Source of the DNA: an uncultured Alphaproteobacteria bacterium
GTDB lineage: Bacteria; Pseudomonadota; Alphaproteobacteria; JAGOMX01
Length of the DNA: 64,000 nt
Reading direction: 5' to 3'
Assembly (NCBI GenBank): GCA_963780985.1
Contig: CAWAEF010000015.1
Span: forward strand, 6,839 to 70,838
The notes under the pieces are model-generated. The model was not told the origin of the DNA and did not search any database. It saw only the letters and a list, made by a program, of their open reading frames with translations. The first letter of the stretch is position 1; every line of letters starts with the position of its first letter. Made by a program: the position numbers and the translations under genes. Below are positions 19,627 through 24,822 of this stretch, one piece after another.

Positions 19627-22095
19627 TCATTTCCTCTTCAGCAAGGCGTATTTAAGTACTTCCGAAATGTGTGAAACCGGGATTATTCTCATCTGATCCT
19701 TCACTTCTTGTGGTACATCCTCTAGGCTGTCAACGTTGTCCTTGGGTACGAGAGCAATTTTCATGCCGGCCTCATGGGCGGCGATCAGCTTGTTCTTTAA
19801 GGCGCCGACGGAGATTACATTTCCCAATAAGGTTAATTCGCCGCTCATGCATATATCTTTCCGAATGGGGATCTCGCCCAGGGCGGATACCATGGCCGTG
19901 GCGATGGCGGCACCTGCTGATGAGCCGTTCTTTTCCGTTTCCGTTTGTAGGAAATGTATATGAACGTCTTTGTCCGTAAAATGCTCATCTTTGAGGTTGT
20001 AGCTCCCGGTCAGCATTTTAACAACAGTCCAGGCGACTTCAATGGATTCAAGCACGCTTTCACCGAGATTGCCGGTTCCTTGGGCTTTGCCTGCACCTTT
20101 AGTTGCTGCCACTTCTAGGCCGCTGAGGGAGCCACCGCCGCCTCCATTTGCAAGAATTGAGATATATCCAATGGTATCTTTTTCTGCAACTTTGTGAGGA
20201 ATGCGATCGGACCGTCCCAGAATAGGCTGAAGCATATGAGGCTCGACCACCGTTGTGACGCGAGGCCTTCCACTTAACTCATTTTGCGTGACCACCGCGC
20301 GGCAGATCTGACTGATTTTGCGTTCCAGCTCGCGGACGCCAGCCTCGCGGGTGTATTGGGTAATAATATTCTCAAGGGTTTCTTGCTTGATGACGACTTC
20401 ACCTTTGCGCATGTTGTTCTCTAACATCTTCTTCGGAACAAGATATTGTTCTGCTATTGCCAGCTTTTCCATGTGTGTGTAGTTGTCTAACACGATTATT
20501 TCTAGGCGATCTCTGACAGTTGGGTGAATTTTAGTAGCGTCGTTAGCGGTTGCGATAAAAAAGACCTTGGACAAATCAAAGGTTACCCCGCTAACATATT
20601 GATCTTTAAACGCATAGTTTTGACCGGGATCAAGGACTTCTAATAAGGCGTAACCAGGGGATCCGTTGGTTCCATTTTCGCCCAGTTTATCGAGCTCATC
20701 CAGACACAAAACGGGGTCATTCACACCAGCTCTAGTTATGGCTTTTATTATCTCTCCTTGACTGCCTCCCACATAGCCAGGAGCCCATCCTTTTATGGTT
20801 GCTGCATCATTAACGCCGCCTAAGGCCAATCTTTGGAATTTCCGGCCCTTGGCTTCGGCTATGGCTTGGCAGATCGTTGTTTTGCCGACACCGGGAGGGG
20901 CGACAAAGCATAAGATGCTACCTCCGGCGTCTGGCTTTCTTGATTCAACTGCTAAAGATTGAATGATCCGTTTTTTGATCTTTTCCAAACCATAATGATG
21001 CTGTTCTAGAATTCTTTTAGCTTCTCTGATGCTGGGGGCAGCTCCTGAGGTCTTGTTCCATGGGAAAGCAATAATAACCTCGAGTTGGCTTTTTTTAATG
21101 GCGCCGGCTTCGGATCCGACTTCCAGGTCGACCAAATCTTTTGCCAAGTTATGGGCGTATGTATAAACCTCTGGTAGGGATTTTAGATGTTCTATTTTTT
21201 GCAGCCATTCGCCGATCTTGCCGCTTTTGTGTTGCACACGACCCAACACATCTTGAATCGAGTGGCCGTTTCGTATGGATTTCTCAGCTTCGTGCTGTTC
21301 TTGCAGATGTCGCAGAAAAGCTCTGCCCTCGTTATTTTCTGGGTCAGCGAGATCTTCTTCCTCATCGGCCTGCATATCTAAATTGTCCCTGATATCGTCC
21401 AATTCTTGCTTCTTGCGTAAAGCTAGGTGACGAACCAGTTGTCTCGCTTCGGGATCTAGTTTCATGCCCTTGGCCGATGCTAGGATTTCATCGATATCTT
21501 CCACATCCAGCACATCATCATAATCTACAAAGTCTGGCTGATCATGATTCAAAGCCTCTGGGGAAAAAAGCTCATCTGCTCCCCTTGTGTTCTTATCTAA
21601 TTCTGCATAGGCGCCTTCCTTGTACCACCGGCGGGCTTTACGTATTTTCTTGCCCGTATTGGCTGGAGCTTCTGGAAGGTTATCCCAGTTTAGGGCTGGA
21701 TCTGTTGGCTCTCCATTATCTAACTCTTCTTCGTTTTGGCCTGCATCCCTTTGTCTTTTTTTCGCACTGTTATTGCTGGAATTTATATGTTCAATAACGG
21801 TCGGTTCTTCTTCATCATCATCCGAGTTGAACCAATTACTAGCCGTCGGCTGCGGATTCTTTCTTTGGGGCACATTAGTCACCCCTGCAGGTCCATTATT
21901 GCGCTCAGCCGGTGCGGATGACTTTTTACGCGGTGGAGCCTCAGGATTGTTGCTGCTATCCCATGTAAATGGCTGCTGAGGTTCTGGAGCTTGCTCATCA
22001 TCTGAAAAACTAAAATAACTCGACCACACGTCGGTGGTTAAACATGTGCTGAAAGCGAGAGCAAATAGCAGGGAATTGCATTTTCTGTGAGACAT
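19627..22095 (-). CDS. LonA-type AAA+ serine protease paralog; the N-terminal substrate domain is replaced by a signal-like peptide plus an acidic disordered region
   Basis: HYGLEKIKKRI, Walker A PPGVGKTT, Walker B CLDELDK, catalytic GSSAG Ser and GALKNK Lys. N-terminus MSHRKCNSLLFALAFSTCLTTDVWS is followed by about 190 aa of D/E/P/N-rich sequence. Confidence 0.85.
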   Translation of the reverse strand: MSHRKCNSLLFALAFSTCLTTDVWSSYFSFSDDEQAPEPQQPFTWDSSNNPEAPPRKKSSAPAERNNGPAGVTNVPQRKNPQPTASNWFNSDDDEEEPTVIEHINSSNNSAKKRQRDAGQNEEELDNGEPTDPALNWDNLPEAPANTGKKIRKARRWYKEGAYAELDKNTRGADELFSPEALNHDQPDFVDYDDVLDVEDIDEILASAKGMKLDPEARQLVRHLALRKKQELDDIRDNLDMQADEEEDLADPENNEGRAFLRHLQEQHEAEKSIRNGHSIQDVLGRVQHKSGKIGEWLQKIEHLKSLPEVYTYAHNLAKDLVDLEVGSEAGAIKKSQLEVIIAFPWNKTSGAAPSIREAKRILEQHHYGLEKIKKRIIQSLAVESRKPDAGGSILCFVAPPGVGKTTICQAIAEAKGRKFQRLALGGVNDAATIKGWAPGYVGGSQGEIIKAITRAGVNDPVLCLDELDKLGENGTNGSPGYALLEVLDPGQNYAFKDQYVSGVTFDLSKVFFIATANDATKIHPTVRDRLEIIVLDNYTHMEKLAIAEQYLVPKKMLENNMRKGEVVIKQETLENIITQYTREAGVRELERKISQICRAVVTQNELSGRPRVTTVVEPHMLQPILGRSDRIPHKVAEKDTIGYISILANGGGGGSLSGLEVAATKGAGKAQGTGNLGESVLESIEVAWTVVKMLTGSYNLKDEHFTDKDVHIHFLQTETEKNGSSAGAAIATAMVSALGEIPIRKDICMSGELTLLGNVISVGALKNKLIAAHEAGMKIALVPKDNVDSLEDVPQEVKDQMRIIPVSHISEVLKYALLKRK

Positions 22096-22136
22096 GCTGA
22101 GACTCCGTTAGTTTAAGAATGGACTATTGGTTAAGC

Positions 22137-22161
22137 GCAGCAGCCTGGGAAAGGCTGCTGC
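22137..22161. other. GC-rich hairpin between the exonuclease and Lon-like genes
   Basis: GCAGCAGCC tgggaaa GGCTGCTGC. No clear U-tract, so terminator status is uncertain. Confidence 0.35.
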
Positions 22162-22173
22162 TTGTGGGTTTAC

Positions 22174-23139: not shown

Positions 23140-23206
23140 GGCGAGCTGTGTGGTTAAGAATGCTTTATTCTTGGGATGTATCTGACTTGCGGGGGATAAC
23201 AGCCCT

Positions 23207-23863
23207 TCAAACTTCTTCCCTTTTAAGAGCGTTAATAATTACGGCGCGTTCAAATTCGGCTTTCATATACCGATAGTCAAAGGGCGCGTTGTGGGCGACG
23301 ATTTTATCAGCCCTCATCAAAATCCCTGAGATTTCTTTGGCCACGTCTTCAAAGCGAGGGCATTGTCTGGTCACGCTGCGGCTTATATGGTGGGCCTTGA
23401 AAGCACCCACGTTGCTGTCCTTGTCAGGGTTGAAGATTGCTTCCCAACGTAGTTCTTCTACCCCGTTAACCATCATTAGTATACCCAAAGACACGGCCCG
23501 GCCTCCTATACGAGCAGAAAACGAAGTGGTCTCATAGTCTATAAAGGCAACAGCCTTATCTCTAAAGTCATCGGTCATATGAACTACTTGCAGTTTGTAA
23601 TCCGATTTTACGTGGTGACTAGGTTGTGCTTGAGGCGCAGTGACGGCTGAGGCGGCTGGTTTTTCTCGCTGGCGCTTAGCGGATGCTTTTGGGAACGTTG
23701 ATGGTCTGCTATTTGCAATAGGTTTTGTGCTACTGATAAGGTCATCTAAAGGGTCATACCCTTCTTCATCCTGTGGTTTGGAAGCAGCTTTGCTCTTGTT
23801 GCCTTTCGGGGTGTCAGTGCCCTCATAAGGGTCGCCGTCATTGATAAAGCTGTCGCCTTCCAA
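23207..23863 (-). CDS. DEDDh (DnaQ-like) exonuclease, N-terminal part (Exo I and II motifs) behind a disordered extension
   Basis: FIDYETT (Exo I) and VAHNAPFDYRYM (Exo II). The called start is TTG. The frame is open upstream to 24142. There is an internal ATG at 23578. Confidence 0.6.
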   Translation of the reverse strand: MEGDSFINDGDPYEGTDTPKGNKSKAASKPQDEEGYDPLDDLISSTKPIANSRPSTFPKASAKRQREKPAASAVTAPQAQPSHHVKSDYKLQVVHMTDDFRDKAVAFIDYETTSFSARIGGRAVSLGILMMVNGVEELRWEAIFNPDKDSNVGAFKAHHISRSVTRQCPRFEDVAKEISGILMRADKIVAHNAPFDYRYMKAEFERAVIINALKREEV

Positions 23864-24093
23864 ATCTTCATATTCATCAAGTTGTTGATTAGCAGATGGT
23901 TTGCTTTTTCCAGCAGGTTGTGTGCTAGCGATCAGGTCATCTAGCGGGTCATACTCTTCATCATCTTCATTCTGTGGTCTGGACGCAGCTTTGCTAAATT
24001 TGCTTTTTAGGGACGTTGCTTTTGGGGTGACAAAATTATCAAAGGGGTCGTCTTCATAATTAGTATATGGGTTCTCATCGTCATCGATGTCTT

Positions 24094-24822
24094 CTACCTC
24101 TTCAGCAAAGCCGACATACTTTGACTTTGACGGCTTGGAGCCTTACCTAGCCGTGCGTTATCGTTGGCTGAGCCCTTAGAGCTAGCCCAGGAGTCAAATC
24201 CTATGTCATCCGGCTGTTTCTTGAGTGAGCTTTTAGGTGGTAAATTACCAGCAGGCTTGCCTGCCGTATTTTGGCGTGCGGCATTGGCTGCTATGCCCGC
24301 ATAAGTGCCCACGCGAGCGGCGTTTCGTTCTTGTATAATGGTGCTAAGTTGCTTCATAGAAGACTTGCGTGCCGGTACTGCGCCAGAGGATACGGGGGCT
24401 TGGTTTGATTTCTTTATTGCGTCAGGCCCTTTCTTAAAGGAAGAAATGCCGTTTTCCGCTTTTACAAAGGTCTTTTGGTTTCTAATGGGAGCGGTTGGTT
24501 TTCTGTTGGTGTTGGCTTCCTCAGCGGAATCACCTGCAAAGTTGTTGCGGCCGAAACCAAAATCGTCGACATCGTAAGACCGTTGCTTATTTCCTCCGTT
24601 GCCAGTTCTATTTCGAGCGGTATCTTGGTCGTCTTCCTCTGGCTGGGAACCATAAAAGTCGCTGGGGCCGTACTGGTCATATGGTACAGCCGCAGGGGTA
24701 TCATCCGAGAAGCCGCCCCAGAAGCCTTCGGTTGGCCTGTTGCTTGCGTTTGATGGCGCGTGGACAGCTAAGAAAGTGAGTATGAAAGATAGGGTTGCTA
24801 GAATTTTGATGCGATTTGACAC
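24094..24822 (-). CDS. Secreted low-complexity (disordered) protein, possibly the detached 5-prime part of the exonuclease gene
   Basis: Signal peptide MSNRIKILATLSFILTFLAVHAPSNA. The rest is rich in G/N/D/S/K. The 3-prime end overlaps an open downstream frame. Confidence 0.5.
   Translation of the reverse strand: MSNRIKILATLSFILTFLAVHAPSNASNRPTEGFWGGFSDDTPAAVPYDQYGPSDFYGSQPEEDDQDTARNRTGNGGNKQRSYDVDDFGFGRNNFAGDSAEEANTNRKPTAPIRNQKTFVKAENGISSFKKGPDAIKKSNQAPVSSGAVPARKSSMKQLSTIIQERNAARVGTYAGIAANAARQNTAGKPAGNLPPKSSLKKQPDDIGFDSWASSKGSANDNARLGKAPSRQSQSMSALLKR

Follow-up and report, generated by a model that had tools for sequence, protein, structure and literature searches.

All AAA+ proteases and exonucleases of the epsilon type known to us work strictly in the cytoplasm. 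Among proteins that share the S16 fold of Lon, the SepM-type proteins are without an AAA+ module, and BrxL has no signal peptide and is found in BREX operons. Three described cases from the Alphaproteobacteria are relevant to what follows: the Holospora protein PRP1, which is periplasmic and is released into the host nucleus (PMC9866348); Caulobacter LarA, in which five hydrophobic C-terminal residues suffice for Lon binding, for degradation and for Lon activation (PMC10665427); and the Holosporineae, in which a non-standard type VI secretion system (T6SS) is typically combined with flagellar genes (PMC11909080). The subject here is a pair of genes, encoding a DnaQ-type DEDDh exonuclease and a LonA-type ATP-dependent protease, on the minus strand of a 64,000-nucleotide stretch from an uncultured Alphaproteobacteria bacterium (GCA_963780985.1, contig CAWAEF010000015.1), hereafter the window. 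Literature searches turned up no full-length Lon bearing a Sec signal, no secreted DEDDh pair and no such system, in keeping with the preliminary description of this stretch, which knew of none. The pair may represent Sec-exported enzymes that act in a foreign cell containing ATP, either host or prey, a reading to which a probability of roughly 0.4 is given, bacterial prey being somewhat less likely than a eukaryotic host.

The two genes and the parts of the protease are arranged as follows.
22174-24822, minus strand: DnaQ-type DEDDh exonuclease gene, one ancestral gene of 882 amino acids if intact, split into three open reading frames (ORFs).
19627-22095, minus strand: LonA-type protease gene, 822 amino acids, in the order signal peptide, linker, LonA; gene intact.
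22021-22095, minus strand: predicted Sec-type signal peptide of Lon, MSHRKCNSLLFALAFSTCLTTDVWS, then SYFSFSDDE.
Lon residues 1-25, signal peptide; to about residue 200, disordered linker; residues 200-275, low-confidence helices.
Lon from about residue 291, helical bundle and AAA+; residues 559-604, Lon_lid; residues 617-819, S16 protease.

The case for export begins with N-termini that are shared by all five full Lon proteins, the partial Lon of locus L010 and all eight exonucleases of the family. One to three Lys or Arg precede a hydrophobic core about 10-16 residues long; acidic residues before the core are absent from 11 of the 13 proteins and never number more than one. Small residues occupy positions -3 and -1 (SNA/S, ANA/S, TAS/T, LAS/W, NAS/D and others, the slash marking the predicted cut), and by manual criteria the tripartite organisation of a signal peptide is present in 13 of 13 proteins. 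These N-termini have neither a twin-arginine motif nor a conserved lipobox. The Lon N-terminus in the window, MSHRKCNSLLFALAFSTCLTTDVWS, has two Lys or Arg, no Asp or Glu and a 16-residue uncharged core with a mean Kyte-Doolittle value of 2.06 over 12 residues, and its equivalent is found in four of four full-length Lon orthologues. Directly after the predicted cleavage site an aromatic and acidic cluster is conserved; the FSDD motif to which the preliminary description drew attention is literally present in both N-termini of the window, but as such it is not conserved. A GGAG Shine-Dalgarno site lies about 5-11 nucleotides (mostly 6-9) before every signal-peptide start codon (acGGAGtctcagcATG for the Lon gene, AGGAGagcagctGTG for the exonuclease gene), once the called starts of the L006 exonuclease and the L010 Lon are shifted a few codons upstream, which restores their signal peptides. 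Judged from these sites, the signal peptides of the pair are translated, as the earlier argument presupposed.

Between signal peptide and enzyme stand linkers of 76-379 amino acids that diverge freely in both sequence and length. They are disordered, as had been claimed, but with 13-23% hydrophobic residues, 14-23% Asp and Glu and 12-23% Lys and Arg they are polyampholytes and not simply acidic. Islands of conservation are embedded in them: in Lon, a basic patch followed by W-Y-x-x-G-x-Y-x-x-L and the element M-D-x-x-D-x-I-E-E-I-L...K-G-x-x-L-D-x-x-A-R, and in the exonuclease, D-L-S-D-F-V-V-x-D-x-V-V-x-Y or D-L-x-G-D-x-F-I-N-D.

The protease itself is complete from the AAA+ module onward, with AAA (residues 395-535; PF00004, 3.1e-18), Lon_lid (559-604) and Lon_C (617-819; PF05362, 1.4e-52) recognised by Pfam. 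What it lacks is the LON N-domain: PF02190 gives no match in the protein, whereas canonical Lon matches of the same search do carry it. The signal peptide and a disordered linker of about 175 residues stand where that domain would be, the endopeptidase La model TIGR00763 aligns only from residue 279 onward, and AlphaFold returns a predicted local distance difference test (pLDDT) value below 50 for residues 143-202 and a confident fold only from about residue 291. The earlier picture of a signal-like N-terminus and low complexity in place of the N-domain is thus upheld. The protein falls below the equivalog cut-offs (510.8 bits versus 608.05 for TIGR00763; 428.1 versus 891 for NF008053), and identity to canonical Lon does not exceed 44%, as compared with 74-89% between UvrB of the same genome and its relatives. 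Even so, the ATPase and protease motifs are in place: Walker A APPGVGKTT (residue 399), Walker B VLCLDELDK (462), sensor-2 EAGVREL (584), the pore-loop Tyr in IKGWAPGYVG (434), the catalytic Ser in KNGSSAG (722) and the Lys in GALKNK (764). Walker A and B, pore-loop Tyr, Arg finger, sensor 2 and the Ser-Lys dyad are kept by all six Lon sequences of the family; the window lineage shows the variants APPGVGKT, KNGSSAG and GALK, with the catalytic residues still in place. As far as sequence can define it, the Lon of the pair is a very rare and newly defined LonA subfamily without an N-domain.

In its intact form the exonuclease consists of a signal peptide, a linker of about 380 residues and a DnaQ/DEDDh exonuclease. 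Its orthologues, found via the Lon neighbourhood, are single ORFs of 683-722 amino acids with the order signal peptide, linker, Exo I, Exo II, insert, Exo III, tail. In the window the motifs read FIDYETT (Exo I), AHNAPFDYRY (Exo II) and HGALIDSDLL (Exo III), with DDDLIGGIF at the C-terminus, and D-x-E, the Exo II Asp and H-x4-D are kept by eight of eight family exonucleases. The nearest solved relative by both sequence and fold is Escherichia coli Pol III epsilon, aligned over epsilon residues 10-112 and 144-225, and the match to the proteobacterial dnaQ equivalog TIGR01406 (dnaQ_proteo) is far below its cut-off (56.8 and 40.2 bits versus 222.7). There is no compact exonuclease domain of about 180 residues: some 255 amino acids between Exo II and Exo III take the place of about 30 epsilon residues. 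This insert, listed as unknown in the preliminary description, is predicted by AlphaFold to be an all-helical domain (pLDDT 76), but Foldseek searches of PDB and BFVD returned structural matches for the DnaQ core alone and none for the insert, and a hidden Markov model of it found only family members (five representatives) among 1.84 billion representative proteins. The tail, for which pLDDT is below 50, is charged and unrelated in sequence to the C-terminal segment by which DnaQ binds the Pol III alpha subunit, and seven exonucleases terminate in [DEG]LIGG[ILVF]F. The divergent 484-amino-acid relative P0252 (L009, 10001-11455) has a signal peptide, a short linker and the helical insert; it is without the LIGGxF tail and without a Lon neighbour (an alanyl-tRNA synthetase gene is convergent downstream), and it is the only Lon-less relative. 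By motif content and predicted fold, the exonuclease is a newly defined DnaQ-like subfamily with an orphan helical domain.

That the two genes form a tandem with the same unusual architecture, as first described for the window, is borne out by their recurrence in six divergent lineages (the window together with L008, L002, L004, L006, L007 and, in part, L010), always exonuclease then Lon on the same strand. The spacer is 65-80 nucleotides in five of the six (78 in the window); in L010, where the contig stops within the signal-peptide and linker part of the Lon gene, it is about 130 nucleotides as called and about 107 with the corrected start. One of these loci, L002, belongs to the metagenome-assembled genome 'Alphaproteobacteria bacterium JTS-AC329' (GCA_041738135.1). 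Flanking genes are unrelated from locus to locus, and the pair is therefore a conserved unit. The architecture is common to 13 of 13 orthologous proteins even though the lineages share only 40-66% identity (40-51% among the family Lon members). The family is also extremely small, with eight matches in 5.8 billion proteins and one species among 185,579 GTDB representatives. No further loci were found in Joint Genome Institute metagenome contigs, and IMG/VR holds no relatives of the pair, on which ground a phage origin was rejected. As a separate matter, the Lon search returned the giant proteins P0004-P0008, of about 1,380-1,430 amino acids, with three tandem Lon-type AAA+ modules and one C-terminal Lon protease domain, plus a 961-amino-acid version with two AAA+ modules; they scored above canonical Lon, and their composition suggests high-GC organisms.

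In the window the exonuclease gene is broken. The preliminary description reported an ORF with a signal peptide preceding the exonuclease frames, and the ORFs are as stated, but all belong to a single frameshifted gene, which had gone unrecognised. They occupy 24094-24822, 23207-23863 and 22174-23139 on the minus strand, in frames 0, 2 and 0 of a three-frame translation. With the overlaps between their open frames, at about 24094-24142 and at about 23207-23238, the parts are as follows.
24094-24822, minus strand: ORF A, frame 0, signal peptide MSNRIKILATLSFILTFLAVHAPSNA and first part of the linker, ending at a stop made by the deletion.
24144-24146, minus strand: frameshift 1, A3 in the sister strain to A2 in the window, GGTAAAGGC becoming GGTAAGGC, a 1-nucleotide deletion.
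23207-24142, minus strand: ORF B, extended, frame 2, remaining linker, Exo I and Exo II; RNase_T match 2.4e-11.
23219-23221, minus strand: frameshift 2, G2 in the sister strain to G3 in the window, TAAAAGGAAG becoming TAAAAGGGAAG, a 1-nucleotide insertion just past Exo II.
22174-23238, minus strand: ORF C, extended, frame 0, helical insert of about 255 amino acids, Exo III (H-x4-D), charged tail and LIGGIF end.

Three separate genes before Lon are rejected because the orthologues are intact and because L008 (contig in ENA ERZ27248494), 99.5% identical to the window over 13.1 kb, carries an intact 882-amino-acid allele. By eye, the ORF A segment GFGRNNFAGDSAEEANTN corresponds to GFGNDRYAAASDVEEANTN of the intact L002 orthologue; the ORF B linker contains an internal duplication (...KAASRPQNEDDEEYDPLDDLIAST / KAASKPQDEEGYDPLDDLISST...). 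Programmed frameshifting is likewise rejected, as the sister strain and all orthologues read in one frame. Given that the only two indels in the 13.1-kb alignment both fall within the 2.65-kb exonuclease gene (chance about 0.04) and that the window's other large genes are intact, general indel noise of the assembly is not supported, although errors at the short homopolymers A3/A2 and G2/G3 may have occurred. In the ancestral frame, 13 substitutions between the window and L008 are synonymous and 6 non-synonymous, and purifying selection therefore acted on the exonuclease until very recently. Either the window allele has freshly lost its function or its consensus is in error, and unless the frameshifts are assembly errors its product is probably non-functional. 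Differences between the two strains come in clusters, with 19 of them in uvrB, 11 in the gene resembling FadL and 18 in the part of the exonuclease that lies between the indels (region 27937-29996 compared); long stretches elsewhere are identical, a pattern that suggests patchy recombination between strains. Exact-sequence look-ups of the window ORF A and of P0127 returned no record.

In light of these features, a mechanism may be put forward in which a two-gene operon sends both products out via the Sec pathway. One would be a 3'-5' DEDDh exonuclease of the DnaQ type that carries the helical insert specific to its family, the other an ATP-dependent LonA-type protease that has no N-domain, and both would be tethered to disordered polyampholyte linkers of considerable length. 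The pair would then be released into a foreign cell that contains ATP, and would work there; delivery to a host cytosol, the most economical hypothesis of the preliminary description, would be one form of this. The exonuclease tail [DEG]LIGG[ILVF]F might act as a degron or as a docking element for the partner Lon, which, given ATP, might accompany the nuclease or control it. The destination is suggested by chemistry, since the periplasm contains neither ATP nor the usual Lon substrates; with the ATPase so well conserved, action in an ATP-containing foreign cell is the most coherent reading. The earlier objection that a secreted ATP-dependent protease makes little sense in the periplasm is strengthened by the family-wide conservation of the ATPase motifs. 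The link between tail and Lon is proposed because the LIGGxF tail and the Lon neighbour co-occur and LarA offers a precedent; for the route, PRP1 is one. The gene structure, the conserved pairing, the translation of the signal peptides, the intact catalytic motifs and the rarity of the family are shown by the analysis; export, destination and tail-Lon interaction are what we infer. Next to the Holosporineae pattern, the gp25-like gene of L004 and the flagellar cluster of the window are circumstantial. In its most specific version, with a protease running on host ATP and a nuclease both released into a eukaryotic cytosol or nucleus and coupled by the LIGGxF tail, the proposal is doubtful.

Several points weigh against foreign-cell action. 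The signal-peptide calls were made by manual criteria and not by a calibrated predictor, and export is to that extent an inference. The tail-Lon link rests on one tail-less solo homologue, P0252. The window exonuclease is frameshifted while Lon is intact, which argues that the two proteins are not strictly interdependent. Clusters of the form K[KR]x[KR], resembling nuclear localisation signals, occur in every linker, with only modest enrichment over shuffles (p from about 0.004 to 0.45). As clamp-binding, PIP-box, SIM or LIR elements the short motifs match imperfectly, and no such role is put forward for them. The window encodes flagella, polyhydroxybutyrate (PHB) synthase, Zn uptake and a hybrid kinase, and the bacterium is therefore not a reduced obligate symbiont; neither a host association nor a eukaryote-specific domain was demonstrated. 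UvrB places the genome only within the Alphaproteobacteria, with Paracaedibacteraceae about as close as free-living Rhodospirillales. Finally, no outer-membrane secretion system is consistently linked to the pair across the loci, a gp25/TssE-like gene lying near it in L004 only.

The last of these points is also an argument for the best-surviving alternative, that the pair resides in the periplasm or envelope, where the exonuclease would degrade incoming DNA (in extracellular DNA scavenging, transformation control or defence against injected or conjugated DNA) and Lon would act independently of ATP, as protease or chaperone. That both proteins have signal peptides agrees with this, periplasmic nucleases such as EndA and Dns are common, extracytoplasmic proteases of the SepM family that have only Lon_C exist, and the window Lon has a weak match to NF041438 (E = 0.0047). 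What makes this alternative rather unlikely is the complete AAA+ module, with Walker A and B, Arg finger, sensor 2 and pore loop in all members: motifs kept at 40-51% identity imply that ATP hydrolysis is under selection, the periplasm has no known source of ATP, and the known extracytoplasmic Lon_C proteases are without the module. Nor does a defensive role gain from PADLOC, which gave only generic domain-level matches (the Lon_C part of BrxL, generic DEDDh, PDC-S48) and no partner genes around the pair; membership of a defence system was rejected accordingly.

Another reading is that of an antibacterial or predatory weapon, delivered to the prey cytoplasm and turning the victim's ATP against its proteins and DNA, and the evidence for export and ATP dependence is the same as for action in a eukaryotic host. 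The enzymes are of bacterial type (an epsilon-like exonuclease and LonA), the producer is flagellated and apparently free-living, and in L004 a gp25/TssE-like gene and three tube-like paralogues adjoin the pair. Yet linkage to a T6SS or contractile-injection apparatus goes no further than this gp25-like gene, at one of six loci and absent from the other five; an immunity gene adjoins the pair at no locus, cargo of such systems normally lacks Sec signal peptides, and long linkers rich in Lys and Arg and in Asp and Glu are more typical of proteins aimed at eukaryotes. A weapon against bacteria is on balance unlikely, more so than periplasmic residence.

The simplest answer to the problem of ATP and substrates would be that the N-terminus is an uncleaved membrane anchor and that both enzymes face the producer's own cytoplasm, for example to act on DNA or protein substrates at the inner membrane, as membrane-anchored AAA+ proteases such as FtsH and archaeal LonB exist. 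This is improbable, for in 13 of 13 N-termini Lys or Arg precede the core and an acidic cluster follows it, and by the positive-inside rule such a charge distribution predicts an N-in/C-out orientation with the catalytic domains outside the cytoplasm; moreover, a transmembrane helix would be expected to be longer than these cores of about 10-16 residues, and the small residues at -3 and -1 are those of signal-peptidase sites. That these are merely divergent housekeeping lon and dnaQ genes with N-terminal extensions produced by annotation is hardly credible: no other lon or dnaQ lies within the 64-kb window, but both proteins fall below their equivalog cut-offs, the Lon N-domain is missing, the exonuclease contains a 255-residue insert, a Shine-Dalgarno site precedes every signal-peptide start, the family is confined to about eight lineages in 5.8 billion proteins, and the exonuclease is frameshifted in the window strain without general gene decay.

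Two candidate regulatory elements were found in the DNA around the pair.
22137-22161, minus strand: spacer hairpin, GC-rich, 10 bp, no T-tail; minimum free energy -22.2 kcal/mol, z = -3.3.
25003-25030, minus strand: best sigma-70-like promoter match before the exonuclease gene, TTGATA-16-TAGAAT, 10 of 12, a consensus match only.

Hairpins of unrelated sequence occur at the same position of the spacer in L002, L004 and L007 and not in L006 (four of five spacers in all), which fits an intercistronic attenuator or stabiliser. The number of sigma-70-like sites in the promoter region is not above shuffle expectation. Upstream of the exonuclease gene lies the AT-rich gap of 487 bp noted from the start (24823-25309), with 32.4% GC as against about 47% for the window. 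Within it are a perfect 31-nucleotide inverted repeat (arms 25158-25188 and 25198-25228, 9-nucleotide loop) and, overlapping this, a 26-nucleotide direct repeat, TAAAATTGTTCAGTTAGGACAATTTT, at 25180-25205 and 25229-25254 that is unique to this spot in the window; the repeats at 25158-25254 separate the exonuclease gene from the divergent gene at 25310 and might serve as an operator or a bidirectional terminator, or else form a miniature mobile element. The latter (25310-26239, plus strand; 309 amino acids) adjoins the pair only in the window and L008. It does have a signal-like N-terminus, MTTYKYCIIGLLSLFLNMSAFGS, but its earlier designation as HAD-like is not supported, as no match for the protein was obtained in Pfam, NCBIfam, PADLOC or PDB.

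The window is otherwise an ordinary segment of alphaproteobacterial chromosome with flagellar, PhaC, ZnuABC and FadL genes, and an Rfam scan of it gave no matches. ORFs at 43414-45985, considered as a possible second frameshifted gene, are ZnuC, ZnuB and ZnuA. The flagellar cluster ends, past FliM and DUF6468, with two ORFs (36893-38648; 338 and 258 amino acids) that have no family matches, and a 405-amino-acid protein at 12708-13925 has weak winged-helix matches only. Elsewhere in the family, a prolyl-oligopeptidase (S9) gene (L002, 12365-14569) begins 73 nucleotides after Lon on the same strand and may extend the operon. Upstream of the pair in L004, region 199-7409 encodes a lipase-3-like protein with a signal peptide, a signal-peptide protein with a K/A/P-rich tail resembling histone H1, three tandem paralogues of an unknown protein of about 200 amino acids, the third with a long poly-proline/glycine end, and the gp25/TssE-like baseplate gene; this region may represent a contractile secretion locus of a non-standard kind, with tails that resemble those of eukaryotes.

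The implications depend on how much of the proposal survives. Should the most specific version be true, with protease and nuclease released into a eukaryotic cell and coupled there, an AAA+ protease would for the first time be seen to act as a secreted effector, and the pair would be an effector and meta-effector derived from housekeeping machines. If export is confirmed, energy-dependent proteolysis run on another cell's ATP would constitute a new effector class, and a poorly sampled alphaproteobacterial group would be marked as probably cell-associated. Even without confirmed export, there would still be a very rare LonA subfamily devoid of its N-domain and a DnaQ-like subfamily with an orphan helical domain. 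More broadly, the pair, which comprises two genes and offers a single conserved tail and a single unique insert, is a testable system for the coupling of a nuclease to a protease by linker or degron.

Both proteins are within known superfamilies (LonA-like and DEDDh/DnaQ-like), yet they fail the equivalog tests and lack or add defining parts. With LonA as modelled by TIGR00763 the protease shares the AAA+ module, the lid, the S16 Ser-Lys domain, the catalytic and pore-loop residues and the helical bundle before AAA+; it differs in having a signal peptide and a linker of about 175 residues instead of the LON N-domain, and in an identity of 44% at most. Similarly, the exonuclease shares Exo I-III and the H-x4-D signature with Pol III epsilon/DnaQ, epsilon being the best solved relative, and is set apart by the helical insert of about 255 residues, the signal peptide, a linker of 180-380 residues and the LIGGxF tail. 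Resemblance to the SepM family (NF041438, E = 0.0047) and to BREX BrxL (1.2e-13 in NCBIfam, 1.5e-16 in PADLOC) is that of the S16 fold, in both cases over the protease domain only and far under cut-off. LarA and the exonuclease have in common a short, conserved, hydrophobic C-terminus on a partner of an alphaproteobacterial Lon, but their sequences are unrelated, and LarA was proposed by its authors to act via the Lon N-domain (PMC10665427), which the window Lon does not have. Holospora obtusa PRP1 (63 kDa) is likewise alphaproteobacterial, first periplasmic and then secreted to the host macronucleus, where it meets DNA (PMC9866348). It is a DNA-binding protein and not an enzyme pair, and no sequence relationship is claimed; the likeness is one of route only.

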